A stretch of 64,000 bases of DNA from Candidatus Dormibacteria bacterium (GTDB lineage Bacteria > Chloroflexota > Dormibacteria > Aeolococcales > Aeolococcaceae). The translations under genes were made by a program, and so were the position numbers. The DNA is taken from positions 22,253 to 86,252 of the forward strand of contig JBEKIT010000002.1 in NCBI GenBank assembly GCA_050011555.1, in the 5' to 3' direction. Below, one piece after another: positions 3,287-52,498 of this stretch (positions within the stretch are counted from its first letter, which is position 1; every line of letters starts with the position of its first letter). The notes beneath the pieces are model-generated. The model ran no database searches. It was not told where the DNA came from and was given only the letters and a program-made list of their open reading frames with translations.

Positions 3287-3352
3287 TCGCCGGCGACGAA
3301 TCATGGAGACGACTGGTGGGCGCGGTTCGACGATGCGGCTGAGGCCCGAGGC

Positions 3353-6998: not shown

Positions 6999-7009
6999 CC
7001 CCGGACCGC

Positions 7010-8035: not shown

Positions 8036-8036
8036 C

Positions 8037-8615
8037 TCAGATGTTCTCGATGCTCCAGTCGAAGCCGATGCGCGGGTCGTCCCAGGCGATCCGGCCCTCG
8101 TCGGGGTCGGCGGGATCGTAGGGCTCGGTCACGTAGTAGTTGAGGATGACGTCCTGGAGGCTCAGCACCTGGTAACCGTGGCCCACGAAAGGGGGGATGG
8201 CCACCATCTTGGGTGAGTGCTCGCCGAGGATGATCGACTGGATGCGTCCGGCGGTCGGGGACCCCTCGCGGAGGTCGACGAGAACCACGCGGGCATTCCC
8301 CTGCACGATGTCCCAGTAGTCCCACTGGCGCTTGTGCCAGTGGAAGGCCTTGATCAGCTCCGGCGGGTTCCCACCCCGCGCATACGCGAGGCTGCGGGAC
8401 ATCTGGGCAAACGGCTCGGCGGGGATGAAGGGACGGCCCTCGTCGTCGAGGTCCCCCCGCTTGAGCTGCTCGATGAAGTAGCCGCGCTGGTCGGCGTGCT
8501 TGCGGAAGGTCTTCACCATGACGCCGTCGATGCGCCCCACCCGCTGAGAGGCAGGGACGCTGCTGATGTCTGCGAGCACCCGCTCCATCGACTCGGTGAC
8601 CGCCATCCAGGCCAT
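8037..8615 (-). CDS. rmlC: dTDP-4-dehydrorhamnose 3,5-epimerase
   Basis: The C-terminal 192 aa of the long ORF match the RmlC cupin (..FRKHADQRGYFIEQ..KAFHWHKRQWDYWDIVQG..PPFVGHGYQVL..). ATG at 8615-8613 shares one base with the rmlA stop (TGATG). The upstream 140 aa of the ORF is only the other frame of rmlA. Confidence 0.85.
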   Translation of the reverse strand: MAWMAVTESMERVLADISSVPASQRVGRIDGVMVKTFRKHADQRGYFIEQLKRGDLDDEGRPFIPAEPFAQMSRSLAYARGGNPPELIKAFHWHKRQWDYWDIVQGNARVVLVDLREGSPTAGRIQSIILGEHSPKMVAIPPFVGHGYQVLSLQDVILNYYVTEPYDPADPDEGRIAWDDPRIGFDWSIENI

Positions 8616-9679
8616 CAGCGCAGCTCCACGCGGGACTGGTCGCCCAGCATCAGGCGGTAGGCGCGCGGCCGTTCCGGGGAGGAGCGCACGGTGCACCCCT
8701 TGCCGATCAGCGAGGACTCGATCTTGCCGTCGACGCCGTCGATCACGCTGCCCTCGAGGACGATCGAGTGCTCGATCTCGGACCTCCGGATCGTGCAGTC
8801 GTGGTAGATGGAGGTGAACGGCCCCACGTAGGACTGCTCGATGAGGGTCCCGGACCCGATGATGGCCGGTCCTCGGACCAGGCAGTTGCGGAGCTGCGCC
8901 CCTGTCTGGATCACGACCTTGCCCTCGAGCCGCACGTCCTCGCCGAGGAGGCCCTCGACCCGGGGCGCCAGGGTGTCGAGGATGATCCGGTTGGCCTCCA
9001 GCATGTCCTCGAGGCGCCCGGTGTCCTTCCACCACCCGGTGATGACGTGGGGCACCACCCGGGCTCCGTCATCGATCATCCGCTGGATCGCATCGGTGAT
9101 CTCCAGCTCGCCGCGGGCGCTGAGCTCGATCCGCTCGATGGCGTGGAACACCGCCGGGGAGAAGAGGTAGACGCCCACCAGGGCCAGGTCGCTCCGGGGC
9201 ACCGGCGGCTTCTCGACCAACCGGACCACTCGCCCATCCTCCAGCTCGGCCACCCCGAAGCGCTGGGGCTCGGGGACCCGGGCCAGCAGGATCTCGGCGT
9301 CCGGCTGCAGCCGGCGGAACTCGTCCACGAACTCCGTGATCCCGTCCCGGATGAGGTTGTCGCCCAGATACATGACGAACCGGTCCTCGCCGAGGAAGTC
9401 CCTGGCGATGAGCACGGCGTGGGCGAGGCCGAGCGGCGCCTCCTGGGGGATGTAGGTCACCGAGGCGCCGAAGCGCGAGCCGTCGCCGACCGCCGCTCGC
9501 ACCTCCGGGCCGGTCTCGCCGGTGATGATCCCGATCTCGGTGATGCCGGCCGCGACCACCGCCTCGATCCCGTAGAAGAGGATCGGCTTGTTGGCGATGG
9601 GGACCAGCTGCTTGGCGCTGGTGTGGGTGATCGGCCGGAGGCGGGTGCCCGTGCCCCCGCTCAGGATCAGCGCCTTCAC
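8615..9679 (-). CDS. rmlA: Glucose-1-phosphate thymidylyltransferase, long form with C-terminal left-handed beta-helix
   Basis: MKALILSGGTGTRLRPITHTSAKQLVPIANKPIL..., the canonical RmlA N-terminus. 354 aa with a hexapeptide-repeat-like tail. Confidence 0.9.
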   Translation of the reverse strand: MKALILSGGTGTRLRPITHTSAKQLVPIANKPILFYGIEAVVAAGITEIGIITGETGPEVRAAVGDGSRFGASVTYIPQEAPLGLAHAVLIARDFLGEDRFVMYLGDNLIRDGITEFVDEFRRLQPDAEILLARVPEPQRFGVAELEDGRVVRLVEKPPVPRSDLALVGVYLFSPAVFHAIERIELSARGELEITDAIQRMIDDGARVVPHVITGWWKDTGRLEDMLEANRIILDTLAPRVEGLLGEDVRLEGKVVIQTGAQLRNCLVRGPAIIGSGTLIEQSYVGPFTSIYHDCTIRRSEIEHSIVLEGSVIDGVDGKIESSLIGKGCTVRSSPERPRAYRLMLGDQSRVELR

Positions 9680-9863: not shown

Positions 9864-12341
9864 TCAGACCACTGGCGGAAGCTGGAACCAGCCTGCCACG
9901 TCGACGATGGCGTCGATGCTGCCCTGGTTGTTGTAGAGGTCGACCTCCCCCGCGTTTCCCCCGGTGGCGGGGAGCTGGACGATCACGAGGTTGGGGGTGT
10001 TCTGCTGCGGGCTGACATTGAGGTCGCTCGCATTGGGGAGCGAGACGTTGGCCGGGTAGAGGGTGAAGTAGGTGAAAGCCGAGCCCGAAACCGCCGTGAC
10101 GTTGGCGATCACCGCCACCGGCGGGGTGGCGCCACCGTCCGCCGGAAGGCTGTCGACCCCTGCCACCGGGATGGTCAGGGTGCCACCCTGGGTGAGGGTC
10201 GCGTCCGAGCACTCGGTTGAGTAGTTCACCGCGAGCTCATCGCGGGTGTCGCAGATCCGGAGCGGGCTGACCGCATAGAACTCCGCGCCCTGGGTGCTCT
10301 CACTCCCGTTGCCGAACCAGCCGTTGACGTCGAGGATGAAGTTGATCGACCCCAGCGAGTTGTAGACGCAGACGTCGTTGGCCGGTCCCAGGGGCACGAT
10401 CACCCGGTTGGGGAGATTGGTCTGGGCGTTCACGTTGACGTTGGAGAACTGGGGCGTCCCGCTCGGGCAGGTGCCACCGGCTCCGGCAGGCTCCACCGCC
10501 ATGTAGGTGAGCGAGGTCCCCGAGACCGCGGTCAGGTTGAGGGCCACCGCCGCCGCGTCCGTGGCCGGCACCGATGGGGTGCAGGTGGGATCGCCGGTGG
10601 GGCAGCCGGAGACCACCACCCTTGTCCACTGGCCGGGGCCCAACGGGTTCCCGGAGCAGGCGGTGCCCGTCCCCGAGCGGCTGTCGCAGATCCGCAGCGG
10701 GGAGATGGGGTGGAAGAGCCCGGGGATCGACGAGGAGCCCGAGGGCGCGGCGAAGTATCCCTCGACGTCGACCGCGACGTTGATGGAGCCGAGCGAGTTG
10801 TAGATGCTCACCTGGCCGCCAGCTCCCAGGGCGACCACCACCAGGTTGGCCTGGTTGGTCGCCGCGTTGACGTTGATATTGGACGCGGTGGGCACGGCCG
10901 ATCCGGCCGGGAAAGCGGTCAGGAAGGTGCCCGCGGTGCCGCTGATGGCGGTGACGTTGAGGACCACCGACTGGGCGTCGCTAGGCACCGGCTCCGACCC
11001 GACCCCGGTCACCTGGAAGGTCATGGTCGCGCCCTGGCCGAGAGGCCCGTCCGACGAGCACTCCGTCGAGTACCCGGTCACCGCTGCGGTGCGCGTGTCG
11101 CAGATCCGGGAGGGTGAAAGAGCCGTGTACGCGGTCGCGACCGGCTGGTACGTCTGCTCGATCAGGGCCTGGCCCGAGTTCCAGTCCACCCCGACGGCGA
11201 TGCAGTCGGCGGCGGAGATGCAGGCGGGCTGGACCAGCTCGGCGTTATCGCTCGGGCTGGGGCTGTAGGCGAGGCTCCAACTCGTCCCGTTGTACTGCTC
11301 GATGAGCGTGAATTGCTCGTTGCTGCTGTCTAGGTAGTAGCCGACGGCCCAGCAGTCACTGGCTGAGGCGCACGTCACGCCGAAGTGGACGCCGTTGACG
11401 CTGCTGGGCGGGTTGGGGCTGGCGACGGTGCTCCAGCTCGACCCGCCGTACTGCTGGGTCAGGGTGAACCAGTAGCCGCTGCTGTCCGCATACTGGCCTA
11501 CCGCCCAGCAGTCGCTGGTCGACACGCAGGTCACGCCGAAGAGACCCGACTGGGCGCTGCCCGCCGGGCCGGGGTTGGTGGCGATGCTCCAGCTCGACCC
11601 CGTGTACTCCTCGGTGAGGGAGGTGGAGTTCCCGGAGTTGTCGGTGGAGTAGCCCACCGCCCAGCACTCGCTGGCCGAGGCGCAGGCCACGCCGTTGAGG
11701 ACGGAGTACGGGCTTCCCACCACGCTGAGGCTGGAGACGAGGTCCCAGGCGCTCCCCGTGTACTGCTCGGTCAGGGTGTAGGTCGTATCGTTGCTGTCCG
11801 CGTAGTTGCCGACGGCCCAGCAGTCGTCCGCCGAGAGACAGGTCACGGCCGCAAATTCGGAGTACGGCGCGCGCCCGGGTGCGGGGGCGGTCGAGACGAC
11901 GCTCCAGCTCGTGCCGTTGTACTGCTCGATGAGCGCGGACGGGTCCAACGCGCCTCCTGACAAACCCACCGCCCAGCAGTCGTCGACACCCACGCAGGAG
12001 ACCTGAGCCAGGTAGGCGCCGCCGCTGACGGCGGGGCTGCCGACGACGCTCCAGCTCGTGCCGTTGTACTGCTCGACCAGGGCGGTCGAGTCGAGGATTG
12101 ATCCCACGAACCCGACCGCCCAGCAGTCGTCGGCGTTGACGCAGGTGATCCCGGACAGGAAGGAGTTCGCGACCTGCGGGCTCGCGACCGTGGTCCAAAG
12201 GGTGGGTCCCACCGGCACAGCGCCTGCCTCCGCTCGCTGCGGACGTGCAAGGCTCAGTCCCGCCGAGGCCGCCGCGACGACGGCCGCCACGAGCAGCCCC
12301 CGGGTCAGCAGACCCCACCTTCGATTCTGTGTGATCGCCAC
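9864..12341 (-). CDS. Secreted repeat protein: signal peptide, about 9 'DCWAVG' ~50-aa repeats (putative beta-propeller), and a C-terminal triplicated GWFQ module (subfamily 1)
   Basis: GTG at 12341 is preceded by GGAGGA with a 6-nt spacer. Signal-like RRWGLLTRGLLVAAVVAAASAGLSLA. Repeats VTCxSxxDCWAVG...EQYNGTSWS. Three C-terminal repeats of about 130 aa (..SPLRICDTR..VLNVTAISGTAGTFLT..PTASNLN..GSINxxVDVxGWF). Ends ..VAGWFQLPPVV. Confidence 0.7.
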   Translation of the reverse strand: MAITQNRRWGLLTRGLLVAAVVAAASAGLSLARPQRAEAGAVPVGPTLWTTVASPQVANSFLSGITCVNADDCWAVGFVGSILDSTALVEQYNGTSWSVVGSPAVSGGAYLAQVSCVGVDDCWAVGLSGGALDPSALIEQYNGTSWSVVSTAPAPGRAPYSEFAAVTCLSADDCWAVGNYADSNDTTYTLTEQYTGSAWDLVSSLSVVGSPYSVLNGVACASASECWAVGYSTDNSGNSTSLTEEYTGSSWSIATNPGPAGSAQSGLFGVTCVSTSDCWAVGQYADSSGYWFTLTQQYGGSSWSTVASPNPPSSVNGVHFGVTCASASDCWAVGYYLDSSNEQFTLIEQYNGTSWSLAYSPSPSDNAELVQPACISAADCIAVGVDWNSGQALIEQTYQPVATAYTALSPSRICDTRTAAVTGYSTECSSDGPLGQGATMTFQVTGVGSEPVPSDAQSVVLNVTAISGTAGTFLTAFPAGSAVPTASNINVNAATNQANLVVVALGAGGQVSIYNSLGSINVAVDVEGYFAAPSGSSSIPGLFHPISPLRICDSRSGTGTACSGNPLGPGQWTRVVVSGCPTGDPTCTPSVPATDAAAVALNLTAVSGTSLTYMAVEPAGAGGTCPSGTPQFSNVNVNAQTNLPNRVIVPLGPANDVCVYNSLGSINFILDVNGWFGNGSESTQGAEFYAVSPLRICDTRDELAVNYSTECSDATLTQGGTLTIPVAGVDSLPADGGATPPVAVIANVTAVSGSAFTYFTLYPANVSLPNASDLNVSPQQNTPNLVIVQLPATGGNAGEVDLYNNQGSIDAIVDVAGWFQLPPVV

Positions 12342-12634
12342 CTGATGTCCTCCTGAGCCCCAGATGTTCGATTCGAGACGCCCCGGCACGATGAGACGCC
12401 CCTGCGACGCTCCGCGACGCCTGGCGCCCTGTCGCAGGGGAGCGCTCAGGGAATGGGAGGCCGCGCGGAGTATGTGCCGCCGCACTCGGGGCCCACAAGT
12501 GCCCCCGACACATGTGCAGGCACCAACCTCGGCTTCCAGGATCCCCGGCGGCGTGGTCGGAGGCGTCGCGAGCCGCGCGCCCATGGTAGGCTCGCTGGGC
12601 CTTGCGCATCCTCCAGGGCTGAAGGATCACGTCC

Positions 12635-15600
12635 ATGCTCACGTCGCACCCGCCGAGGCGCTTCCTCACGACCGGCACCGCCCGCCTGGGTCTCGCCGCC
12701 CTGCTGGCCGCCGGCGCCCTCGCCGGAGGGCCCGCCATCTCCGGACTCCCCGCGACGGCGGCGGCTCAGCAGCCGGCCGGATCTCCGCGCTCCGGTGTGG
12801 TCAGCCCCCAGCACCCCGCACCGCTTCCGCACGCGACCGGCACCGTCCCGGACGGCTTGGGGGCGGTCCAGGAGAGCCCGCTACGGACGCCCTCGGGCAG
12901 CCGAGCGTCGTCGCTCGCCACCTCCAATCTGGGATCGGCGAGCGCGCCCCTCCCACTCCAGGCGTGGGTGGGGACCAGCCTCAGCGGGGAGACCAGCGCC
13001 TTCGGCTCCGACCAGGCGGGCGTCGCGCCTCCCGACCCGGACGTGGCGGTCAGCGGGCAGTGGGTGGTCGAGACCACCAACCAGTCCCTCTACGTGCGTC
13101 AGCGCAGCGGCGCCGCCTACCCCGATCAGCCCGGCGCCGCCTGCCCGCCGCCCGGCCCGGGCTCGCCGAACTACGCCCAGTACAGCCTGACTGGCTGCGA
13201 CGAGATCGACCTCAACAACTTCGTCGAATCCAACGGGTGGGAGCTCAGCGATCCCCGAGTCGTCTACGACCCCGGGGCGGGGCAGTTCTACCTCTCCTTC
13301 TTCGTCACCACCACCCCGAACGCCAGCACCTCCTGCCTGCCGGGCTACCCGGTCGGCGCCACCTGCAGCCGCTTCTACCTCTTCCACACCGAGGATGGGG
13401 ACCCGACCGGCCAGTGGGAGGGCTACTTCTTCGACTCGTACTACGCGGACACCATCACCGACCAGCCGATGGTCGGCTTCTCCAGCGACAAGATCGGGGT
13501 CTCGTGGGACGAGTTCGACGTCGCGAACCACCTCTGGGTGGGCGACGAGTACTTCGTCCTCTCCAAGGCGACGTTCCTCGCGAACGCCCCAAACTCGGAT
13601 CCCGTCATCGACCCCCAGTCCACCCAGCTCGGTGCACCCTCCACGAACTTCTTCAGCCTGTTCCCGGTGTCCGACCTCTCCAGCGGATCGACCCTCTACT
13701 TCGTCAGCAACAACGGCTCCGATGACCTCCCCTCATCGCCGCCGGGCCCCTCCATCTTCGTCCTCGGCGTGACCGGGAACACCCCGGCCACCATCGCTCA
13801 GACCTACCACTACCCATCGACCGCGGAATCCTCGGCCCCGCCCGCGGCACTCCAGAAGGGGAGCTCGGACACCATCGACACCGACGACGACCGCATCGAC
13901 GGTGGGGTCTGGAGCAACGGGATCCTCTGGACCGGCTTCGACGCCGCCTGCACCCCGACCGGTGACACCACCGAGCGGGCCTGCATCCGCTACATCGAGA
14001 TCACCACGACAACCTTCGGCGTGCCGGAGGACGACAGCTACGGGGTCTCCGGGACCTACGTCTACTACCCCTCCTTCGGGATCGACCCGAACGGCGACCT
14101 GATGAGCACCTTCACCAGCTCCAGCAGCACCTCCTACCCGACCGTCGTGGCGATGGGCCTCCCCGCCGGCCAGACCCTCCTCTCCGCGCCGGAGACCCTG
14201 CTGACGGGCAGCGGGCCGTATGCCGACCCGAGCACCACGGACGGTGTCTGCAGCATCGACAACGACCCGGTGACCGACACCACCGCCTGCCGCTACGGCG
14301 ACTACGGTGCGGGTGCCACGGACCCGGAGTATCCGGAGGACTTCTGGTTCGTCAACGAGGTCCAGCTCGATGGCAGCAACTCGGCTGACTGGGGGACCGA
14401 GATCGGGGAGCTGACCTACTCCGGGCCCTCGATCACCAGCTTCGACCCCGCCGTCGGCCCGACCACCGGGGGCGTCACCGTCACTGTCGAAGGCACCGAC
14501 TTCGCGCTCGGTACCACCTTCAGCTTCAACGGCGCGTCGACGGCGATCACCAACCTCACCCCCGAGTCGTTCACCTTCACAGCACCCGCCCATGCTGCGG
14601 GCACGGTCACGGGGGCCGCGACCGACTCCTTCGGCACCAGCTCGCCGGCAACCTCCTACCTCTACGTCGGGCCATCCCGCTACCAGCCGCTCGCGCCCTA
14701 CCGGGTGCTCGACACGCGTTCCGCCACCTGCGTGCAGTGCGCGGGCGGAGCAATCGGGTCGGCTCAGACGCGTACGATCCAGGTCGGTGGCTACACCCCA
14801 CCCGGCTACAGCGGGACCATCGTCCCCGCCGGGGCTACGGCGGTGGTGCTCAACGTCACCGCGGTGAGCGGGACTGCCGGCACCTTCCTCACCGTCTTCC
14901 CCGCCGGTGGGGCGGTCCCCACCGCCTCCAACCTGAACACGCCCGCGTCCACCAACATCGCCAACCTGGTGACCGTCGCCCTCGGTGCCTCCAGCGGAAG
15001 TCCGGGGTACGTCAGCATCTACAACGCGGTGGGCACCATCGACGTGGTTGCCGATGTGGAGGGCTACTACTTCACCGGCGGCAGCGGCTCCGCCGGTGAG
15101 TTCCACGCCCTCTCCCCGCCCGTGCGCGTGTGCGACTCGCGGGGGAATCAGGGTACTCCGGGGACGCTGTGCAGCGGAGCCGGCGGCGCCAGCGACCCTC
15201 TCGCCTCCGGGCAGAGCCGTCTGGTCGCGGTGACCGACGGCACCACGGGTGTCTCGACCTCGGGTGACGCCGCAGCGGCGGTGCTCAACCTGACCGCTGT
15301 GAGCGGGACGGCGGGCACGTTCCTCACCGTGTACCCACCCACCCCCGACGGCGGCAGCCCCCCCACCTGCGGCTCGCCGCCGAACGCGTCCAACCTCAAC
15401 ATCCCCGCCGGTACCAACCAGCCCAACCGGGTGATCGCCCAGGTCGTCCAGTTCGATGGGACGGGATACGTCTGCGTCTTCAACGACCTCGGCACCATCA
15501 ACTTCATCATCGACGTCAGCGGCTGGTTCGGCAACGGCACTGACACGGGAGGCGCGCTCTTCTACCCGCTCGGCCCGTCGCGCATCTGCGACACCCGATT

Positions 15601-15925
15601 CGGCTCGGAGACGGAGTGCGCCGGCGACGCTCTGGGCTCCGGCGGCAGCGAGTCCGTCCAGGTCGAGGGCGCCGGCCCACTGCCCGACTCCGGCATCGTT
15701 GCGCTCGTCGCCAACGTCACGGCGGTGAGCGGTACCGCCGCCACCTTCCTCACCGTCTACCCCGCCTCCGGCTCACCGCCCGTGACCTCCGACCTCAACC
15801 CGCCCGCTCAAACCAACATCGCCAACCTGGTCATCGTCGCGGTCGCCGCCGACGGCCGGGTCGACGTCTACAACTCGCTGGGCAGCATCAACTTCATCAT
15901 CGACGCCGTCGGCTGGTTCCAGTAG
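12635..15925 (+). CDS. Secreted protein (1096 aa): unknown N-terminal domain of about 600 aa, an IPT/TIG domain, and a C-terminal triplicated GWFQ module (subfamily 2)
   Basis: Signal peptide MLTSHPPRRFLTTGTARLGLAALLAAGALAG. IPT-like PSITSFDPAVGPTTGGVTVTVEGTDF. Three repeats start at YQPLAPYRVLDTR. Ends ..IIDAVGWFQ. Confidence 0.7.
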   Translation: MLTSHPPRRFLTTGTARLGLAALLAAGALAGGPAISGLPATAAAQQPAGSPRSGVVSPQHPAPLPHATGTVPDGLGAVQESPLRTPSGSRASSLATSNLGSASAPLPLQAWVGTSLSGETSAFGSDQAGVAPPDPDVAVSGQWVVETTNQSLYVRQRSGAAYPDQPGAACPPPGPGSPNYAQYSLTGCDEIDLNNFVESNGWELSDPRVVYDPGAGQFYLSFFVTTTPNASTSCLPGYPVGATCSRFYLFHTEDGDPTGQWEGYFFDSYYADTITDQPMVGFSSDKIGVSWDEFDVANHLWVGDEYFVLSKATFLANAPNSDPVIDPQSTQLGAPSTNFFSLFPVSDLSSGSTLYFVSNNGSDDLPSSPPGPSIFVLGVTGNTPATIAQTYHYPSTAESSAPPAALQKGSSDTIDTDDDRIDGGVWSNGILWTGFDAACTPTGDTTERACIRYIEITTTTFGVPEDDSYGVSGTYVYYPSFGIDPNGDLMSTFTSSSSTSYPTVVAMGLPAGQTLLSAPETLLTGSGPYADPSTTDGVCSIDNDPVTDTTACRYGDYGAGATDPEYPEDFWFVNEVQLDGSNSADWGTEIGELTYSGPSITSFDPAVGPTTGGVTVTVEGTDFALGTTFSFNGASTAITNLTPESFTFTAPAHAAGTVTGAATDSFGTSSPATSYLYVGPSRYQPLAPYRVLDTRSATCVQCAGGAIGSAQTRTIQVGGYTPPGYSGTIVPAGATAVVLNVTAVSGTAGTFLTVFPAGGAVPTASNLNTPASTNIANLVTVALGASSGSPGYVSIYNAVGTIDVVADVEGYYFTGGSGSAGEFHALSPPVRVCDSRGNQGTPGTLCSGAGGASDPLASGQSRLVAVTDGTTGVSTSGDAAAAVLNLTAVSGTAGTFLTVYPPTPDGGSPPTCGSPPNASNLNIPAGTNQPNRVIAQVVQFDGTGYVCVFNDLGTINFIIDVSGWFGNGTDTGGALFYPLGPSRICDTRFGSETECAGDALGSGGSESVQVEGAGPLPDSGIVALVANVTAVSGTAATFLTVYPASGSPPVTSDLNPPAQTNIANLVIVAVAADGRVDVYNSLGSINFIIDAVGWFQ

Positions 15926-15941
15926 GGCACAATCTGAGGGC

Positions 15942-18602
15942 ATGCGGCGCCTGCTCCTCGGCCTCGCACTGCTCGCCCTGGTTCCGGCAGGCGCCACTGC
16001 GGCGAACTGGCCCACCTACCACGGCGACAACACGCGGCAGGGCTACGACGGCAGTGACCCCGGGTTGGCCAGCCCGACCCGCGCGTGGACGTCCCCCGAG
16101 CTCGACGGGCAGGTCTACGCGCAGCCGCTCGTCGAGGGGACGCAGGTCATCGTCGCCACCGAGAACAACACGGTGTACTCACTGAATGCGGCGAGTGGTG
16201 CTATCGAGTGGTCCACCAATCTCGGCACGCCGCGCACCACGGCGATCCTCTGTGGCGATATCAACCCGCAGGGGATCACCTCCACACCCGTCATCGACGG
16301 CGGCAACATCTATGTGGTTGCCAATATCCAGACCGGGTCGTCCACCTTCTACTTCGAGCTGGCCAGCCTCAGCCTGGCCACCGGGAGCGTGAGCTGGACC
16401 GCGAACGTGGACCCGACCGACACCAGCAACCCCTCCGGCATCACCTGGAGCTCGGAGGCCCTCGCGATGGAGGACCGCGGTGCGCTGCTCGTCACCGACG
16501 GGCTGGTGCTGATCCCGATGGGGGGTAACGACGGGGACTGCGGCGGCTACCACGGCTACGTGGTCAGCTACCCGGAGACGGGACCGGGCACGGGGAGCCT
16601 GGCGTGGTGGGCGTCCAGCGAGGTGGACGCAGGGGACAGTCAGGGCGCGATCTGGGCCGCCGGGGGGCTCTCCGAGGACGCCGACGGGTATGTCTATGCC
16701 GGCACCGGGAACAGCAACCACGACCAGTCGACCGACGCCTACGACTACGGCGACGGGGTGATCAAGCTCGACCCCACCGATCTCGCCCCAGGTGCACCGG
16801 TCGATTACTTCGCCCCCTCGAACTGGTACCAGGACAACGCCAACGACGAGGACCTGGGCTCGAGCACCCCGCTGCAGCTTCCCGGTGACCGGATCTTCCA
16901 GGTCGGCAAGTCGGGGATCGGGTACCTCCTCAACAGCACCGACCTGGGCCACATCGGCGGCCAGCTCGCGGAGCATCAGCTCTGCCACGCCACCAGCGAC
17001 GCCGCCTTTGGAAGCCTCGCCTATGCCGCCAGCGTGGTGTTTGTCGGCTGCAGCGACGGGCTGGCCGCGGTCCAGATCGCGGCCAGCGGGGACGATTTCT
17101 CGCCGCTCTGGTACAACACCAGCGACGTCGCCACCCACCCTCCGACCGTGGCCGGCGGAATGGTCTGGTCGGTCAGCGCCGGCGGCGGCCAGCTGCTGGG
17201 CCTCTCAGCGACCACCGGGGTCCTGGAGGACAGCCTGAGCATCACGGGCTCCAACTCCAACCACTTCACCACCCCGACCGCCTCCGATGACCAGCTGTAC
17301 GTGGCGGCCGGCACCGCCGTCGACGCTTTCACCGGGAGCCCGCCACCGGCCACGCGCTATCAACCGCTGTCCCCCTACCGGGTCCTGGACACCCGCTCGG
17401 CCACCTGCGTCCAGTGCACGGGCGGTGCCCTCGGGGGGGGCCAGACGCGCACCATCCAGGTCGGCGGCTACACCCCACCCGGCTACGGCGGGAGCGTCGT
17501 CCCCGCCGGGGCGGTGGCGGTCGTGCTCAACCTCACCGCGGTCAGCGGGACCCAGGGCACCTTCCTCACCGTCTTCCCCGCAGGGGAGGCGGTCCCCAAC
17601 GCCTCCAACCTGAACACCCCGGCCCGCGACAACGTCGCCAACCTGGTGACCGTGGCCGTCGGCACGTCGGGCGGCAATCCCGGTTACGCCAGCATCTTCA
17701 ACGACGCCGGCACCATCGACGTGGTGGCCGACGTGGAGGGCTACTACTTCAGCGGCGGGTCCGGATCCTCGGGCGAGTTCCACGCTCTCTCCCCGCCCAT
17801 CCGGGTCTGCGACTCGCGCGGCGACCAGGGCACCCCCGGCACGCTGTGCGCCGGCACCGGCGGGAGCAGCGACCCGCTCAGCGCGGGCGAGGCCCGCCTG
17901 GTGGCGGTCACGGACGGCGCCACCGGCGTCTCCACCTCGGGTGACGCCGAGGCCGCGGTGCTCAACCTCACGGCCGTCAGCGGCACGGCGGGCACGTTCC
18001 TCACCGTGTACCCGCCCACGTCGAGCGGCAGCGGTCCGCCCACCTGTGGCACGCCCCCGACCGCGTCCACTCTCAACGTCCCGGCCAACACCAACCAGCC
18101 CAACCGGGTGATCGCCACGGTGGTCCAGTCCGGCGGCACCGGCTACGTCTGCATCTTCAACGATCTCGGGATCATCAACGTGGTGGTCGACGTCAGCGGC
18201 TGGTTCGGCAACGGCTCGGACACCGGGGGAACCCTCTTCCACCCACTCACCCCGACGCACATCTGCGACACCCGGCCGGGGCAGGACGTCGTCTGCGAGG
18301 GCGAGACGCTGGCAGGTGGCGCCACCGACTCCGTCCAGGTGGCTGGGGTGGGACCACTACCCGCGACGGGCGTCATGGCCTTGGTCGCCAACCTGACGGC
18401 GGTGAGCGGCACCGCGGGCACGTATCTCACCGCCTATCCGGACTCCGCGTCGCGGCCGACGACGTCCGACCTCAACCCGCCCGCTCAGACCAACATCGCC
18501 AACCTGGTCATGGTCGCGGTCGCGACCGACGGCAGGGTCGACGTCTACAACTCGTTGGGCAGCATCAACTTCATCGTCGATGCCGTCGGCTGGTTCCAGT
18601 AG
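15942..18602 (+). CDS. Secreted protein: PQQ-like (BamB/quinoprotein-type) beta-propeller plus a C-terminal triplicated GWFQ module (subfamily 2)
   Basis: Signal peptide MRRLLLGLALLALVPAGATAANWPTYHGDNTRQGY and repeated ..VYAQPLV..TVYSLNAASGAIEW.. propeller blades. The C-terminal 415 aa are about 85% identical to the C-terminus of the upstream gene. Confidence 0.7.
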   Translation: MRRLLLGLALLALVPAGATAANWPTYHGDNTRQGYDGSDPGLASPTRAWTSPELDGQVYAQPLVEGTQVIVATENNTVYSLNAASGAIEWSTNLGTPRTTAILCGDINPQGITSTPVIDGGNIYVVANIQTGSSTFYFELASLSLATGSVSWTANVDPTDTSNPSGITWSSEALAMEDRGALLVTDGLVLIPMGGNDGDCGGYHGYVVSYPETGPGTGSLAWWASSEVDAGDSQGAIWAAGGLSEDADGYVYAGTGNSNHDQSTDAYDYGDGVIKLDPTDLAPGAPVDYFAPSNWYQDNANDEDLGSSTPLQLPGDRIFQVGKSGIGYLLNSTDLGHIGGQLAEHQLCHATSDAAFGSLAYAASVVFVGCSDGLAAVQIAASGDDFSPLWYNTSDVATHPPTVAGGMVWSVSAGGGQLLGLSATTGVLEDSLSITGSNSNHFTTPTASDDQLYVAAGTAVDAFTGSPPPATRYQPLSPYRVLDTRSATCVQCTGGALGGGQTRTIQVGGYTPPGYGGSVVPAGAVAVVLNLTAVSGTQGTFLTVFPAGEAVPNASNLNTPARDNVANLVTVAVGTSGGNPGYASIFNDAGTIDVVADVEGYYFSGGSGSSGEFHALSPPIRVCDSRGDQGTPGTLCAGTGGSSDPLSAGEARLVAVTDGATGVSTSGDAEAAVLNLTAVSGTAGTFLTVYPPTSSGSGPPTCGTPPTASTLNVPANTNQPNRVIATVVQSGGTGYVCIFNDLGIINVVVDVSGWFGNGSDTGGTLFHPLTPTHICDTRPGQDVVCEGETLAGGATDSVQVAGVGPLPATGVMALVANLTAVSGTAGTYLTAYPDSASRPTTSDLNPPAQTNIANLVMVAVATDGRVDVYNSLGSINFIVDAVGWFQ

Positions 18603-18675
18603 GGCGCCGGCCGCGCAGAGCGGGCCGGCGGCGGTCACGGGATGGCACATCCCGGTGATGGACCCGTAACGATGG

Positions 18676-18704
18676 CGTCTCCGTCGGTTGACATCACGGA
18701 GACG
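18676..18704. terminator. Inverted repeat (8-bp stem, 13-nt loop) downstream of the 15942-18602 gene. Candidate terminator or regulatory hairpin. The loop contains TTGACA.
   Basis: CGTCTCCG tcggttgacatca CGGAGACG. Confidence 0.25.
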
Positions 18705-18720
18705 TACGGGGCGTCCCCAT

Positions 18721-19752
18721 ATGGTGGGGGGCGCTGTGGGATGGCATGTCCGACCCCTCCGACGCCTGCTCGCCATGCTGCTGCCCGTGGCTTTGGCAGC
18801 CGCGATCGTCACCACGTCGCAGCCCGCACGGGCCGCCACGATACCCTGGGGAACCGTCCTGGTGCCGGGGTCGGCGTGGGCCGGCTCGTACGCATCGCTC
18901 GGCGACCTCAACGTCTACAGCAATGGGGATGGTGACGAGGATGTCTGGGGATCGTACGGGTGGGAGTACGAGTGCTTCGAGCTGGCGGCGCGCTGGGCCG
19001 ACATCGCCTATGGAGATCCGCCCTTCGGCTGGAACGCCGCCTACGCCTATCAGATGTACGCGACCGGCCCCTACCAGAACCCCCCCTTCCTGCAGCAGCC
19101 CAATGGCGGCAGCTACGCCCCGCAGTTCGGTGACCTGCTGGTGTTCGACCAGACCTCGTTCGACCCGAGCGGCCACGTCGCGGTGGTCACGAGCGTCAGC
19201 GACGGTTACGTGAACATCGTCGAGCAGAACTGGGGTGATCCCGACCCCACCGGCTACGCCTCGCTCCCCATCGGCGGTGACGTCAACGGGGTCTGGGACC
19301 CGACCTACATGCCGCCGCGCTGGGGGCTGCCCATCCTCGGCTGGCTGCAATCGAGCGTGCTTCGCCAGGGCGTCGCCGGATCGGGTGCGACGCTCCCCTC
19401 CGCCTCGCCCACATCCGGGGCCGAGCCCTCCTCGCGGATCACCCCGCCCACCCCGACCGCGATGGGCTCGCCGGTGCCCACGACGGCACCCTCGAGTGAC
19501 CCGACCATCGGGACCGTGGGCCCGGGGACCTCGTCCGGCTCGGGCACCGATCCCGCGGTGCCCCTCCCGCCGTGCGATTGCACCTGGGGAACGCAGTTCC
19601 TGCCCACCGGTCAGGTGGTGTCCGGTTCCGGCAGTGGGTCGCATCCGCTCCCATCGACGCCTTCGCTGACGGCGAGGGCGTCGCCGTCGGACATCCCCCC
19701 GGGCATCAGCACGCTGCCGCCGACCAATGAGCCGCAGCCCCGGATCGAGTGA
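18721..19752 (+). CDS. Secreted CHAP-domain amidase/peptidase with a C-terminal Pro/Ser/Thr-rich tail
   Basis: Signal peptide ..LRRLLAMLLPVALAAAIVTTSQPARA. CHAP-like core (..YECFELAARW..GDLLVF..GHVAVVTSV..). The tail is rich in P/S/T/G. The start could instead be at 18688. Confidence 0.6.
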   Translation: MVGGAVGWHVRPLRRLLAMLLPVALAAAIVTTSQPARAATIPWGTVLVPGSAWAGSYASLGDLNVYSNGDGDEDVWGSYGWEYECFELAARWADIAYGDPPFGWNAAYAYQMYATGPYQNPPFLQQPNGGSYAPQFGDLLVFDQTSFDPSGHVAVVTSVSDGYVNIVEQNWGDPDPTGYASLPIGGDVNGVWDPTYMPPRWGLPILGWLQSSVLRQGVAGSGATLPSASPTSGAEPSSRITPPTPTAMGSPVPTTAPSSDPTIGTVGPGTSSGSGTDPAVPLPPCDCTWGTQFLPTGQVVSGSGSGSHPLPSTPSLTARASPSDIPPGISTLPPTNEPQPRIE

Positions 19753-19783: not shown

Positions 19784-21868
19784 AGCCAGGAGATGAAGAC
19801 ACGCCACAGCCATGTCCGCCCCGGCAGGCAGGCGCTCACCCTCGGGGTGGCGGTGCTCCTGGCGGCCGCCCTCTGCGCGCGGTCGCCGATCGCGGTCTCG
19901 GCGCAGACGGCCACCCTCTGGGGGATCGACGCCTGCGACCCCGCTCAGTCGGTAGTGCCGGGCACGCAGTCGACCATGGGCAATCCTCAGTTCATGGCGC
20001 GCTACCTGGGAACGTCGAATGCGTGCGGAAGCCCTGGGCTTACCCCCTCCGAGGTCTCGTACCTGTCCTCGCAGGACATCTACATCATGCTCATCGCCGA
20101 CCCTTCCAGCGTCGACTTCAGCAGCGGCACGGCGGATGCACAGAACGCCATCCAGCAAGCGCAGAGCCTCGGTGCGCCCCCGGGCACGGCGATCTTTCGC
20201 GACGTCGAGAACTCCTCGCCGATCTCTGTGTCGTACATCGAGAGCTGGTATGCGGCCTTCGAGTCATCGTCGAGCGGCTATGTCCCCGGCTTCTACGAGA
20301 ACCCTTACAGCGGCAGCGGGAGCTTCCCCGAGGACTACTGCTCGGCGGTGAGCGTGATGGCGGCGATCAGCACGGGCGTTGTCCTCTGGAGCGACGAGCC
20401 GGAGCCCAACTACGGGAACGCCTCTCCGACGGAGGCTGCCGCGCCGGCGTGGAACCCCTCCACCCCCCCCTGCTCGAATACGACGGTCGCTTGGCAGTAC
20501 CTGGAAGACGGTGGCTTCTCCGCGGGCAGCTGGCCCAGCGTCGACGTCGACGAGTTCGACGCGGCCGATGAGAGCCTGCTCTGGAACGCTCCGAAGGGCC
20601 CCGGCGCGTACACGCCGCTCGCCCCGTTCCGGGTCTGCGACACCAGGGCGAGCAACACCACCGCGTGCAGCGGTCACCCCCTGACTCAGGGAGGCACCCT
20701 CGGCGTACAGATCACCGGTGTGGACGGCCCCTCGGGCCAGTCGGTGCCGTCCAGCGCCCAGTCGGTGGTCCTCAACGTCACCGCCATCAGCGACACCGCC
20801 GCCACCGCGCTCACCGTCTACCCCACCGGGTATGCCCTCCCCGACACCTCCAACCTCAACGTCGATGCCGATGTCAACCAGGCCAACCTGGTGGTGGTGG
20901 CCCTCGGCGGCGGCGGCCGGGTGAGCATCTACAACTCGCTGGGCTCCCTCAACATCGCGGTCGACGTCGAGGGCTACTTCGCGGCCCCCGCCGGCTCCTC
21001 GGATGTCCCCGGTCTCTTCCACCCCATCGCCCCGCTCCGGATCTGCGACACCCGCCAGGGCACCGGGACCGCCTGTTCGGGGACCCACAGCGACGACCTC
21101 CTCGGCCCCGGCCAGTGGACCAGGGTGGTGGTCTCCGGCTGCCCCACCGGTGACCCCACCTGCTCCTCCTCGGTGCCCGCCAACAGCACCGCCGCAGCGG
21201 TCGCCCTCAACCTGACCGCGGTCTCGGGGACCTCTCCCACCTACATGGCGGTGGAGCCCGCCGGAGCCGGTGGCACCTGTCCGAGCGGAACGCCCGCCTT
21301 CTCCAACCTCAACGTCAACGGGGGGACCAACCTGCCTAACCGGGTGATCGTGCCCCTGGGACCTCAGCAGGACGTCTGCGTCTACAACTCGCTGGGGTCG
21401 ATCGACTTCATCCTCGACGTCAACGGCTGGTTCGGCAACGGGAGTGAGAGCACCCAGGGGGCCTACTTCTACGCGGTCAGCCCACTGCGCATCTGCGACA
21501 CCCGCGGCGCCGCCAGCGTCGGTTACTCGACAGAGTGCTCCGGGAACACCCTGGGGCCGCGGGGGACGCTGACCGTCCCGGTGGCGGGAGTGGACGGCCT
21601 GCCCCCGATGTCCGGCTCCTCGCCGCCGGTGGCGGTGATCGCCAATGTCACGGCGGTCTCGGGTTCGGCCTTCACCTACTTCACCGTCTACCCGGCCAAC
21701 GCCTCGCTGCCCACCGCCAGCGACCTCAACGCCACGCCCGGTCAGAACGTCGCCAACCTGGACATCGTCCAGCTCGCCGGCAGCGGCGCCAACGCCGGGG
21801 CCGTCGACGTCTACAACAACCAGGGCAGCATCAACGCCGTCGTCGACGTCGAGGCCTGGTTCCAGTAA
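19784..21868 (+). CDS. Secreted protein: N-terminal DUF1906/GH25-like (Rv2525c-like) glycoside-hydrolase-like domain plus a C-terminal triplicated GWFQ module (subfamily 1)
   Basis: Signal peptide MKTRHSHVRPGRQALTLGVAVLLAAALCA. ..LWGIDACDP.. motif. Three repeats start at YTPLAPFRVCDTR. Ends ..VDVEAWFQ. The longer frame from 19727 overlaps the CHAP gene, so the start is uncertain. Confidence 0.6.
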   Translation, partial: SQEMKTRHSHVRPGRQALTLGVAVLLAAALCARSPIAVSAQTATLWGIDACDPAQSVVPGTQSTMGNPQFMARYLGTSNACGSPGLTPSEVSYLSSQDIYIMLIADPSSVDFSSGTADAQNAIQQAQSLGAPPGTAIFRDVENSSPISVSYIESWYAAFESSSSGYVPGFYENPYSGSGSFPEDYCSAVSVMAAISTGVVLWSDEPEPNYGNASPTEAAAPAWNPSTPPCSNTTVAWQYLEDGGFSAGSWPSVDVDEFDAADESLLWNAPKGPGAYTPLAPFRVCDTRASNTTACSGHPLTQGGTLGVQITGVDGPSGQSVPSSAQSVVLNVTAISDTAATALTVYPTGYALPDTSNLNVDADVNQANLVVVALGGGGRVSIYNSLGSLNIAVDVEGYFAAPAGSSDVPGLFHPIAPLRICDTRQGTGTACSGTHSDDLLGPGQWTRVVVSGCPTGDPTCSSSVPANSTAAAVALNLTAVSGTSPTYMAVEPAGAGGTCPSGTPAFSNLNVNGGTNLPNRVIVPLGPQQDVCVYNSLGSIDFILDVNGWFGNGSESTQGAYFYAVSPLRICDTRGAASVGYSTECSGNTLGPRGTLTVPVAGVDGLPPMSGSSPPVAVIANVTAVSGSAFTYFTVYPANASLPTASDLNATPGQNVANLDIVQLAGSGANAGAVDVYNNQGSINAVVDVEAWFQ

Positions 21869-21905
21869 ATGCATCAAACGGGCCGGTAGGCTGCGCCACC
21901 GGGGA

Positions 21906-24900
21906 ATGCTCGGTGACGGGCGTCGGCGGAAGCTAGGTATGCGGGGACACGGGGTGGTGGTCACGTTCGGGACGCGGGAGGGGGTCGACCAGCCCGGCGA
22001 TCGCCATCGGCGGGAGAGGGTGGGGCGGCCTCCCAGCCGGTCGATCCTCATCCTGATCGTCGGCGGTGCCGTGGTCGTCGGTTGCCTCGGTACCGGCGCG
22101 ATGGCGTCCGCCATCTCCGCGGCGGCGGCCTCCTCCTCGTGGGGCGGGGCCCCGGTGGGGCGCGGCACGGCTCAATTTGCCCGCGGTCGGGTCGAGACCC
22201 CTCGCGAGGTCCCGGACTCCGGGCCTGTGAGCGGCGCACGCGGCACCCCCTCCTCCGCGAGCGGTGACCTGGGCGGAGTCACATGCCTGAGCACCATCGA
22301 CTGCCAGGCAATGGGTGAACGCAACGACGGCCCCCTGATCGGGCAGGTGTACCAGCCGCCCGGGCCCTGGACACTGGCGGGCGGCGCGGAGGGCGGCTCA
22401 CTCTCCGGCGACACGTGCGCGGGTCCGGATGACTGCTGGGCGGTGGGCACCACCGCGAGCGGGTTGGGCACCCTGATCGAGCAGAACACCGGGGACGGCT
22501 GGGGTACGGTGACCAGCCCGAGCGAGGGCGGCGGCGGATACACCGAGTTGAGCGCGGTGACCTGTGTGAGTCCGAGCGACTGCTGGGCCGTCGGTGGCTA
22601 CGACAATGCCAACGGCGTGCCCGAGACCCTGATCGAGTGGTACCACGGCACGAGCTGGTCCATCGTGTACAGCCCGAATGAAGGAAGTGGCGACTGGCTC
22701 TTGGGGATCGCCTGCGCCGGGTCGGCGGAGTGTTGGGCGGTCGGCCAGTACGGCGACATCGAGATCGGCGAGGGGCAGCCTCTCCTCCTGGAATACAACG
22801 GGGCCGGCTGGTCTGGCCCAGCGTGGGAGCAGTATGGAAACACGCTGAATGCCATCACCTGCGTGAACGCGAGCGACTGCTGGGCGGCGGGCAACTACTT
22901 CGACGGCTCTGAGTACCAGACCCTGGTCTTCCAATACAACGGCACCGACTGGTCCCGGGGCACGAGCCCCGATGCAGGAAGCCCTGATCCGTCGGTGGTC
23001 TACAACTCTCTGAATGCGGTCGCCTGCAGCGGTGCCGACGACTGCTGGGCAGTCGGCCTGTACGACGAGCCGGGAGGGCTCTTCAACCAGACCCTCATCG
23101 AGCAGTTCGACGGCACAGGCTGGACCGTGGTCGGCAGCCCTGATCCCGGTGGGGCTGACATCCTGTACGGAGTGGCGTGCGCCAGCAGCACCGACTGCTG
23201 GGCGGTCGGCGAGTACTGGCCTGACCCGGCCATCACCGCCGACTATCAGACGCTGATCGAGGAGCTGACCGTCACCTCGTGGACCGCGGCCGCCAGCCCT
23301 GATGTGAGCAGCGCGGATGTCCTCGGCAACGTGGCATGCGATGGCAGCGTCAACTGTTGGGCGGTGGGCAGCTCGTTCAGCGGCAGCCAGACCGTGATCG
23401 AGCAGAGCGTGCAGGGGGATGCGCCGCCGATGGTGACGTCGCTCACCCCGGCGGCGGGGCCGGTGGGCGGCGGGCAGACGGTCACCGTCAACGGGTACGG
23501 CTTCGTGGCCGGGATGACCGTCACCCTGGGTGGCGTCGCGGTGACCCCCTCCAACGTCACCCCCGACAGCTTCATCTTCACCACCCCTTCGGCGAGCGCC
23601 GGCTACGTCACCCTCCAGGCCACCGACGGGTACGGCTCCAGCCTCGAGGACGGCAACGTGGGGTACATCTATGCCGCCCTCGCCGCGTATCACCCGCTCA
23701 CCCCGTTCCGCATCCTGGACACCCGTTCGTCCTCCTGCATCCAGTGCGGGACGGGAGCCCTGCTGCCATCGGGGACCACGACCCTGCAGGTGACCGGGTA
23801 CAGCTCGGGCGGGGAGTCGGTGCCGGCGGACGCGACCGCGGTGGCCCTCAACGTCACCGCGGTCTCCGGCTCGGCGGCCAGCTTCATCGGGGTCTACCCG
23901 GCCGGCACCGGCCGGCCCGACTCCTCCAACCTCAACTTCCTCGCCCAGACCAACACCGCCAACCTGGTGGTGGTGGCCCTCGGCCCCACCGGGGCCGTCG
24001 ACCTGTACAACAGCCTGGGCGCGGTGGACGTGGTCGCCGACGTCGAGGGGTACTTCACCGCCCCCTCGGGCACCCAGGGCCAGTTCCACCCGATCGCCCC
24101 GCTGCGGGTCTGCGACACCCGGCTGGGCCAGCCCGCCAACCCCTGCAACGAGGAGGGGACCGCGGATCTGGCGCTGGGCCCGGGCCAGGTGGCCAAGGTC
24201 GACGTGGCGGCGGTGACCAGCGCCCAGGGGGACATCCCCAGTGACGGCAGCGCCGAGGCGGCGGTGCTCAACCTGACCGCCGTCTCGGACACCCAGGCCA
24301 CCTACCTGAGCGTCTTCCCGAGCTCCTCCAACGGCACCTGCAGCACGGCGGTCCCCCAGAGCTCGACCCTCAACGTCAGCGCCCGGACCAACCAGGCCAA
24401 CCGGGTGATCGTGCCCCTGGGTCCGGCGACCAACGGGGGTCACGACACGGACGTCTGCGTGTACAACTCCCTGGGCAGCATCGACTTCCTCCTGGACGCC
24501 AATGGCTGGTTCGGGGCCAGCGGAGCGGCGGCCGGGACCGACTTCCAGGTGATCGGGCCCTCCCGGATCTGCGACACCCGGGCCGGGATGGGGACGGCGT
24601 GCAGCGGGGACTCGCTGACCCCCGGGGGCGTCCTGCCGGTGCAGGTGACCGGGATGGGCGGGGTGCCCTCCTCGGGGCCGGTGGCGGTGGTGGCCAACCT
24701 CACCGCGGTGTCAGGGACGTCGATGACCTACTTCACCCTCTACCCGGCGGGGGGCACCACCCCCAACGCCTCGGACCTGAACGTGGATGCCCAGCAGAAC
24801 CTCCCCAACCTGGCCATCACCGAGCTGGGCTCCGGGGGGACCCTCGACCTCTACAACTCCCTCGGCACCATCGACGCCGTCCTCGACGTCGAGGGCTGGT

Positions 24901-24908: not shown

Positions 24909-25114
24909 CTCGGCTTGGCCGAGCGACGGCTGGGTTCTCGACGCCTGCTGCGGGATCCGCGCGCGTCGGTAGTCGTACAGAAACGGGGGTCGAAGGTCAC
25001 CTGAAGTGAGATGACGCGTGCCCCTGGCGACGGCTGGGCTCGGACGCGTAAGGCGTCGCCTGAGATGGCCTGAATGTCAGGTCTCGGCGAACGGGCGAAC
25101 GCGGAGGCGCTGAG

Positions 25115-32146: not shown

Positions 32147-32285
32147 GTTGATGGCCCGAAGGTGGCGCGGTTCAGGGAGGGCCGGGGTGCGGGCTGGACG
32201 GCCTCGGACGGGCGGTCCGTTGCTCGCTCCGCCGGATGCATCGGTGGAGGTGTCGCCGTCCCACCGGTGGGAGATCGGCGCCCTC

Positions 32286-39008: not shown

Positions 39009-39017
39009 CTCATCGGC

Positions 39018-47324: not shown

Positions 47325-47363
47325 GCCCCTGAGCCGGGACGGCAGTGACCGGCCCGGACCGCG

Positions 47364-47391
47364 TACAATTCCCGGTATGACAGTCGGGATT
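47364..47391 (+). promoter_or_regulatory. Candidate promoter -10 (TACAAT) overlapping an IscR-type-1-like imperfect palindrome, 22 nt upstream of the Rrf2 gene
   Basis: gcgTACAATTCCCGGTATGACAGTCGGGATTcc. The half-sites AATCCCGAC and GTCGGGATT resemble the E. coli IscR type-1 half-sites (ATAGTTGAC...ACTCGGGAAT), matched from memory. Confidence 0.35.
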
Positions 47392-47412
47392 CCGGCGACG
47401 GCCTCGTTCAGC

Positions 47413-52496: not shown

Positions 52497-52498
52497 CC

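Follow-up and report, generated by a model that had tools for sequence, protein, structure and literature searches.

Seven genes in a 64,000-nucleotide stretch of a Candidatus Dormibacteria genome (contig JBEKIT010000002.1, positions 22,253 to 86,252; here called the window) share a protein module of ~415 amino acids (aa), and the DNA cassettes that encode this module evolve in concert by gene conversion, that is, by nonreciprocal recombination among the copies. As a discrete unit, the module is attached to N-terminal domains that are unrelated to one another (PQQ, S53, Rv2525c-like, Kelch, TIG, and others), and comparison with related loci, designated L001 to L006 and L046 to L048, shows gain, loss, and replacement of whole modules with the module boundary as the limit. 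We hold this evolutionary part of our account (exchange between cassettes together with gain, loss, and replacement of modules) with high confidence. A sequence-only reading of the window had singled out one pair of cassettes, at the 3' ends of two adjacent genes, as near-identical and of recent origin; that repeat is a genuine feature, far beyond chance, but the identity and the recency ascribed to it were too high.

Cassettes in the window evolve in concert

Searched with a hidden Markov model (HMM) of the module, the window yields seven cassettes and no more, the number that had been counted before. Six are C-terminal in their proteins (genes 9864 and 40296, on the minus strand, and genes 12635, 15942, 19727, and 21645); the seventh is not at a 3' end but N-terminal, occupying aa 68 to 486 of the 2,343-aa product of gene 25115. 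The cassettes, in window coordinates, are as follows.

9879 to 11129, minus strand: cassette of gene 9864-12584 (subfamily 1), whose N-terminal part is a region of "CWAVG" repeats; module HMM.
14681 to 15922, plus strand: cassette A, the C-terminal 414-aa three-repeat module of gene 12635-15925; module HMM score of 618.
17358 to 18599, plus strand: cassette B, the C-terminal 414-aa module of gene 15942-18602; blastn, codon alignment, and module HMM.
20609 to 21865, plus strand: cassette of gene 19727/19793-21868, with an Rv2525c-like, glycoside-hydrolase-like N-terminal domain; module HMM and Pfam.
23688 to 24905, plus strand: cassette of gene ~21950-24908 (third lineage), with CWAVG repeats and TIG; module HMM and Pfam.
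25316 to 26572, plus strand: N-terminal cassette of gene 25115-32146, with a Kelch propeller at the C terminus; blastn, Pfam, and module HMM.
40302 to 41552, minus strand: cassette of gene 40296-43598, with an S53 pro-kumamolisin-type peptidase and TIG; module HMM and Pfam.

All seven reading frames are intact, and each of the seven proteins starts with a signal-peptide-like segment. The copies differ from one another by 15 to 38%. Subfamily 1 (genes 9864, 19727, 25115, and 40296), which had been put at 85 to 90% identity, was measured at 69 to 85.5% for protein and 75 to 85% for DNA; within it, the cassettes of genes 40296 and 9864 have 85% nucleotide (nt) identity overall and 92% in repeat 2. 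The gene 21645 cassette represents a third lineage, with 49 to 57% aa identity to each other cassette. No pair in the window shows the >95% DNA identity and long perfect runs of a recent segmental duplication; the best pair reaches 85%, and perfect runs between any two cassettes are at most 55 nt long.

Trees were built from 18 cassettes of five genomes, with the repeats also analyzed separately and at third codon positions. The genome closest to the window is that of L006, and the codon analyses were moved to it because L001 (ENA ERZ25039481 contig_24118) is full of frameshifts that fragment its genes throughout, probably through long-read assembly error. Between L006 and the window, the rml genes have ~90% nt identity and a synonymous divergence (dS) of 0.27 to 0.45, the N-terminal part of gene 12635 has ~84% nt identity and a dS of 0.38, and the cassettes have ~77% nt identity.

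The subfamily 1 cassettes cluster by genome, with bootstrap support of 92% for the window and 100% for each of L006, L046, and L048, and they never cluster by partner (0%), as seen with four Rv2525c orthologs and two A4 peptidases. This by-genome clustering persists at third codon positions, and the concerted evolution occurred independently in each genome. Furthermore, single cassettes are mosaics. Repeat 1 of the gene 19727 cassette groups with its L006 ortholog (97%), whereas repeats 2 and 3 group with window paralogs, and columns 365 to 801 of the same cassette resemble the gene 9864 cassette; in the gene 9864 cassette, columns 93 to 837 resemble the gene 40296 cassette and the remainder resembles the positional ortholog (max-chi-square P ≤ 0.002 in both cases). 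In repeat 2, dS is 0.14 to 0.31 within a genome, compared with 0.5 to 0.6 for positional orthologs, and the within-genome values lie below the dS of orthologous housekeeping genes. Concerted evolution is therefore indicated both by grouping within genomes and by mosaic conflict between repeats, the latter also at synonymous sites, and the gene conversion that the sequence-only reading had offered as one interpretation is borne out for the cassettes at large.

Because 5 to 10% divergence remains inside the converted tracts, these events were not very recent. The cassettes had also been described as substrates for further exchange. Homologous (RecA-dependent) recombination has sequence-identity requirements, and with perfect runs of at most 29 nt between A and B and 55 nt between any window pair, the present-day copies are, by that general knowledge, poor substrates for it.

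Cassettes A and B are diverged paralogous copies

In a blastn self-comparison of the window, which has a G+C content of ~70%, positions 14670 to 15928 aligned with 17348 to 18605 at 80.7% identity over 1,261 nt (E = 0), so that a repeat of ~1.26 kb is indeed shared by the two neighboring genes at their 3' ends. Codon alignment gave 78.3% protein identity, where ~85% had been claimed, with 80.4% identity for DNA and 68% at third positions. The longest perfect run is 29 nt, dS by the method of Nei and Gojobori (NG86) is 0.52, and the ratio of nonsynonymous to synonymous divergence (dN/dS) is 0.27. Given these values, A and B are not near-identical, and recency is not supported, their dS exceeding the range for the orthologous rml genes of the window and L006. 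We concluded that A and B are diverged paralogous copies of one protein module with ~80% DNA identity.

The homology between A and B sets in ~11 nt before the module's first codon and extends to the stop codon or 3 nt past it; its limits coincide sharply with those of the module. The 3' end of the cassette is ~93% conserved, equally in A, B, and the L001 ortholog. Upstream of the cassettes, the two genes share nothing at an E value of ≤1e-3, as expected from the earlier description of their 5' parts as unrelated. That description, an unknown domain with IPT in one gene and a PQQ propeller in the other, was right about the domains and wrong about the length of the PQQ part, which is 472 aa rather than ~650 aa.

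12635 to 14680, plus strand: N-terminal part of gene 12635, with a signal or twin-arginine translocation (Tat)-like start, a region of ~560 aa that matches no family, and TIG/IPT at aa 598 to 659; Pfam TIG, 5e-10.
15942 to 17357, plus strand: N-terminal part of gene 15942, a signal peptide and a PQQ_2-type beta-propeller, 472 aa; Pfam PQQ_2, 4e-13.

The N-terminal part of gene 12635 has an ortholog with 78% aa identity in L006 and one with 51% in L046. Near its start (window positions 12635 to 12760), a twin-arginine-like "PRRFLTTG" precedes a hydrophobic segment, which suggests possible export by the Tat pathway.

In the trees, A and B fall into one clade with the L006 ortholog of A (99 to 100%). 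This clade excludes the cassette of the L002 PQQ ortholog and the L046 ortholog of A; within it, A and B group together with a bootstrap value of 87%, or 91% at third positions. Grouping of B with the L002 PQQ-ortholog cassette received 0% support. Since B nests among cassettes of the gene 12635 type, its sequence derives from a gene 12635-type cassette of this lineage; it would have arisen through conversion of a PQQ-cassette fusion that already existed or through a new fusion, followed by divergence to the present dS.

Whole modules are gained, lost, or replaced

The sequence-only reading had proposed comparison with related genomes as a check, and structural variation was indeed found at cassette boundaries in L001 and L006. 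There, the ortholog of gene 12635 carries a single cassette and is followed directly by the CHAP-domain gene. The flanks are 85 to 93% identical upstream of A and 77 to 93% identical downstream of B, and what L001 and L006 do not have is exactly one cassette period, 2,677 bp, consisting of the PQQ part and one cassette. We considered and rejected the possibility that the single cassette of L001 and L006 is a chimera with the 5' part of A and the 3' part of B, left by a one-crossover deletion: it is A-like or equidistant throughout and never sister to B. A crossover in the ~100 conserved nt at the 3' end would also produce this nonchimeric pattern, so that both an insertion and a deletion agree with it. 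The two closest cassette homologs, P0001 and P0002, are on short contigs of unrelated context and are uninformative on this point.

In L001 and L006, the gene 9864 homolog is moreover duplicated in tandem, and in L006 the cassettes of the two copies are 92% identical. Two larger differences are of another kind. A 17.5-kb segment of the window (21868 to 39398, with genes 21645 and 25115, the GT2 gene, and the WsaF-like glycosyltransferase [GT] gene) is missing from this site in L001 and L006, and the homologs of window positions 28 to 4560 are inverted there and lie beyond the methyltransferase gene. Neither the segment nor the inverted block is bounded by a pair of cassettes, and they therefore lend no support to cassette-mediated rearrangement. 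The prediction of rearrangement at the cassettes thus stands for the one-period difference of PQQ part plus cassette and falls for these two.

Replacement of modules is seen most directly in the orthologs of the PQQ part (75 to 78% aa identity). In L002 the ortholog carries a cassette; in the same island of L003 and L004 it ends in six copies of a ~45-aa "YWPGWDIA..GGYVLDGFGGxHPFG" repeat, and in that of L005 it ends in "FWRGTDG"-type repeats ("FWRGTDGSLW"). The earlier idea that effector domains are swapped onto modules is supported by these different C termini. Moreover, in L003 and L004, all 4 or 5 large island proteins bear DGFGGxH repeats and lack a cassette; they include N-terminal homologs of gene 21645 (50% aa) and gene 12635 (28 to 30% aa). 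Since the N-terminal domains are common to the genomes while the tags differ, the C-terminal tag is genome specific and interchangeable. As for the interpretation first placed on the A/B pair, gene conversion, module shuffling, and cassette-bounded variation are all supported, and only the degree claimed for that pair is not.

The alternative tags are found at 4763 to 17691 of L003 and 894 to 19930 of L004 (3 to 6 DGFGGxH copies) and at 9845 to 11692 of L005. Neither the DGFGGxH nor the FWRGTDG repeat has a Pfam or NCBIfam match.

The cassette genes fill a variable island between rml and suf

The seven cassette genes span 9.8 to 43.6 kb of the window, between the rml (dTDP-rhamnose) and suf operons. 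The other features of the island and its borders are as follows.

6129 to 9679, minus strand: rmlD, rmlB, rmlC, and rmlA (dTDP-rhamnose synthesis), the left border of the island; Pfam; the same border in L001, L006, L046, and L048.
18688 to 19752, plus strand: gene with a CHAP domain and no cassette, located after cassette B and before gene 19727; Pfam CHAP, 2e-12.
32286 to 40133, minus strand: GT2 gene, gene for a 1,270-aa GT2 plus WsaF-like rhamnosyltransferase, and methyltransferase gene; Pfam WsaF_N/WsaF_C, Glycos_transf_2, and Methyltransf_11.
46137 to 54082, plus strand: suf Fe-S operon (cysteine desulfurase, Rrf2, SufC, intein-containing SufB, and others), the right border; Pfam; also in L046 and L048.

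Other Dormibacteria also have a variable island of cassette genes between these two operons. L001 and L006 are syntenic with the window. In L046, the order is rmlDBCA, then cassette genes of the GH18, TIG, Rv2525c, and A4/TIG types, then suf; in L048, it is suf, an A4 peptidase gene with an N-terminal cassette, a WsaF-type GT gene, a GT2 gene, an Rv2525c-cassette gene, and rmlA, so that the pair of GT2 and WsaF-type genes recurs there as well.

Several details of the island genes and their surroundings deserve mention in their own right. The mechanical open reading frame 21645-24908 overlaps the end of gene 19727, and its true start is probably at ~21.95 to 22.05 kb, before the signal-like segment SILILIVGGAVVVGCLGTGAMASA. 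Gene 25115 contains long internal DNA repeats (26589 to 27621 versus 26853 to 27876, at 72%; also 30689 to 31186), and its Kelch propeller lies at 31208 to 32133. The N-terminal parts of genes 9864, 21645, and 25115 have in common a region of ~50-aa "D.CWAVG" repeats (28 to 39% aa identity; window positions 11250 to 12170, 22400 to 23650, and ~27500 to 29100), which has no Pfam or NCBIfam match. Four polytopic membrane proteins with 5 to 9 hydrophobic segments and no family match flank the island (145 to 1533, 1520 to 3286, 3353 to 4681, and 44385 to 46013); the first two are paralogs (66% nt), and the four may be GT-C-like glycan-assembly proteins. In SufB (48736 to 51159, 807 aa), an intein with a LAGLIDADG homing-endonuclease domain splits the sequence; the SufB of L046 also has an intein, and that of L048 does not.

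The module is predicted to consist of three jelly rolls

Each cassette encodes three tandem repeats of ~135 aa that are 44 to 53% identical among themselves and in which the motifs Y.PL.P.R[IV]CDTR, LN[VL]TAVSGT, SNLN, and G[WY]F recur. The module is acidic (isoelectric point of ~4.1) and rich in Ser, Thr, and Asn, with 0 to 2 lysines and 8 to 11 cysteines in ~415 residues. An AlphaFold2 model based on an alignment of 48 sequences was all-beta, with three repeats (predicted local distance difference test score, 93.2; predicted template-modeling score, 0.92), and the repeats are modeled as beta-jelly-rolls. The fold neighbors of this model are an adhesin fiber tip, jelly rolls of carbohydrate-binding module (CBM) families CBM35, CBM36, CBM6, and CBM22, viral capsid jelly rolls, and PNGase F; a single-chain C1q head, aligned over 193 residues, is also among them. 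As modeled, the module thus has the jelly-roll fold of CBM6, CBM35, and CBM36, but Pfam, NCBIfam, and PDB sequences provide no match that would place it in these families.

At the sequence level, the cassette had no Pfam match even at an E value of ≤10, and profile searches of NCBIfam and PDB sequences gave no usable match. Where the module is C-terminal, only 0 to 5 residues follow it, and neither an LPXTG motif nor a membrane segment was found 3' of the module. A C-terminal secretion or sorting signal (such as the C-terminal domain of type IX secretion or LPXTG) was considered and rejected because the module, at ~415 aa, is large and is also found at the N terminus, in gene 25115 and in many relatives.

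The module belongs to a very large family

A profile search of 1.84 billion metagenome cluster representatives gave 37,178 matches at an E value of ≤1e-3 and 13,705 at ≤1e-30, and a word-indexed search gave >2,553 module homologs. The few named homologs are labeled Candidatus Dormibacteria or, in third-party assemblies, "Binatia," and the cultured actinomycete Actinacidiphila paucisporea has a weaker relative with four repeats. In the metagenome clusters, the module mostly extends to the last residue of the protein and in a minority directly follows the signal peptide; stand-alone module proteins exist. Its partners include small domains (TIG, PKD, He_PIG, Big_3, and fn3), enzymes (Rv2525c-like hydrolase, GH18, and G1, C39, S8, and S53 peptidases), and propellers (PQQ, Kelch, RCC1, and YncE).

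The module is a very large, uncatalogued three-jelly-roll family that probably marks the surface proteome of an uncultured phylum. To our knowledge, the Dormibacterota, which are abundant in soil, have no cultured member, and we know of nothing on how their surface is built up and decorated. They have been described as uncultured soil bacteria that are inferred to be monoderm (bioRxiv 10.1101/2021.08.23.457424; PMC10608941). We found no description of the module in the literature on the Dormibacterota cell envelope and S-layer. A domain family of >37,000 clusters that is missing from domain catalogues makes the module itself more interesting than the A/B pair through which it came to attention.

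Possible role of the module

Within a given genome, the island proteins all carry one kind of tag, and rhamnose synthesis and a WsaF-type enzyme are encoded in the island; together these suggest a non-covalent cell-surface anchor or lectin as the likeliest role of the module, which we put forward tentatively, from gene context and analogy. The module would be a common tag that gives all of the signal-peptide-bearing island proteins one destination; the likeliest would be a wall glycan that is produced through the linked rml and WsaF genes and to which the tag would attach non-covalently. Its three jelly rolls might together act as one single-chain, pseudo-trimeric lectin unit by which enzymes are held on this glycan, which would contain rhamnose; gene conversion would then keep all tags in a cell fitted to the glycan which that cell makes. 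As in anchoring of the CWB2/SLH type, three repeats are shared by many paralogs with diverse domains, and the cassette genes are linked to a wall-glycopolymer locus (rml, GT, and WsaF genes) in the window, L001, L006, L046, and L048. Taken as a whole, evolution and anchoring together, we consider this explanation somewhat probable. Its widest form, in which the cassette is the main non-covalent wall anchor of the Dormibacterota and a pseudo-trimeric lectin for a rhamnose-rich glycan, DGFGGxH is a second, interchangeable anchor, lineages switch anchors on whole sets of proteins, and gene conversion matches tags to glycan, is speculative and, all parts considered, doubtful.

Several observations weigh against the explanation or parts of it. 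The distant module gene in L047 does not adjoin rml genes. The fold neighbors are generic jelly rolls, and the three-repeat arrangement as a whole matches no solved or viral structure (template-modeling score of ≤0.26; Foldseek against PDB and BFVD). An acidic module is unlike many binders of anionic wall polymers. On the evolutionary side, the difference of PQQ part plus cassette fits insertion and deletion alike, and the signal of exchange between A and B themselves is modest, with the bootstrap value of 87% and a dS of 0.52, compared with 0.63 to 0.65 to the ortholog.

The module might instead be a substrate-targeting CBM or an adhesin, directed at environmental polysaccharides or other cells rather than at the bacterium's own wall. 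This would agree with its fold neighbors (CBM35, CBM36, CBM6, CBM22, and the adhesin fiber tip), with the many invariant Asn, Asp, and Ser residues (SNLN motifs), which would suit sugar or metal binding, and with the existence of stand-alone module proteins. However, the partners are mostly not polysaccharide degraders (S53, G1, C39, and S8 peptidases; PQQ, Kelch, and RCC1 propellers), and each genome uses one type of tag regardless of the N-terminal domain, another genome having exchanged the tag on all of its proteins. Uniform tagging within a genome speaks more for a shared destination than for a shared substrate. We regard this alternative as unlikely.

Alternatively, the module could be a self-assembling or glycan-carrying surface-layer domain, glycosylated by the rml/WsaF genes as in the S-layer cluster of Geobacillus; these genes would then serve to modify the module and not to supply its ligand. 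The WsaF-like rhamnosyltransferase and rml genes do adjoin structural genes, the cassettes have ~20% Ser plus Thr with a conserved N-x-T ("LN[VL]TAVSGT") in every repeat, and one relative has a weak S_layer_C match. Yet Pfam detected no family of the oligosaccharyltransferase or O-antigen-ligase type in the window, a set of seven paralogs that bear enzyme domains does not resemble one abundant lattice protein, and the conserved N-x-T sits in the predicted beta-strand core. A surface-layer role is accordingly quite unlikely.

Two further alternatives concern the evolution of the cassettes rather than their role. Purifying selection on ancient duplicates, with no recombination, would agree with a dN/dS of 0.27 to 0.4 and with the evenly conserved 3' end, but it is contradicted by the switch of nearest neighbor along the cassette, by the clustering of cassettes by genome at third codon positions, and by the low within-genome dS of repeat 2; we consider it very improbable. 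An assembly artifact (a chimeric contig or duplicated bin sequence), for which only the uncultured lineage and the tendency of repeats to mislead assemblers might speak, is scarcely credible for intact copies this divergent, with such short perfect runs, in a gene order (rml, gene 9864, gene 12635, CHAP, and gene 19727) repeated in the independent assemblies L001 and L006.

With gene conversion and module replacement as the preferred account of its history, the locus is a clean natural example of a tag that is swapped among enzymes and that gene conversion keeps uniform in each genome. Should the tag be a wall anchor, the surface proteome of the phylum could be predicted with its help, and it would be a candidate affinity reagent to label or capture Dormibacterota cells.

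Comparison with known systems

In the Cwp family of Clostridioides difficile, three CWB2 repeats bind the wall polymer PSII (PMC4973711). Like the Cwp proteins, the cassette proteins are secreted paralogs with diverse domains and three nonidentical tandem repeats at the N or C terminus, and their genes are clustered beside a wall-glycopolymer synthesis locus. There is no sequence relationship, and the CWB2 profile (PF04122) matched none of the cassettes. CWB2 has an alpha/beta fold with repeats of ~90 aa, whereas the Dormibacteria module is predicted to be a beta-jelly-roll with repeats of ~135 aa.

The SLH proteins of Bacillus and Paenibacillus bind a pyruvylated secondary cell wall polymer, and their three tandem repeats form one pseudo-trimeric anchoring unit on S-layer proteins and wall enzymes. 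The Dormibacteria module likewise has three tandem repeats as one shared unit, the pseudo-trimer being only proposed here. Unlike it, SLH repeats are helical units of ~55 aa, and there is no homology: the SLH profile (PF00395) had no match on the cassettes. Nor was a csaB-type pyruvyltransferase seen in the window.

The mosaic adhesive fiber protein Bd2133 of Bdellovibrio has a C-terminal beta-sandwich tip that is a trimer (PDB 8OND/8OK3; PMC10769870). The parallels are that the tip acts as a trimer and that the Bd2133 family has diversified by tip swapping. The two differ in that identity is 11 to 12%, the three repeats of the Dormibacteria module are in one chain rather than in three, and there is no beta-helix fiber; any homology between the tip and the module is putative.

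Multigene families of surface proteins can evolve in concert by gene conversion, as do, for example, the repeated modules of bacterial surface antigens. The cassettes differ from such families in that their tracts are old, with 5 to 10% divergence inside, and in that neither silent donor cassettes nor signs of programmed switching are seen here. They resemble them in that the paralogs group by genome, their sequences are mosaic, and homogenization has proceeded tract by tract.

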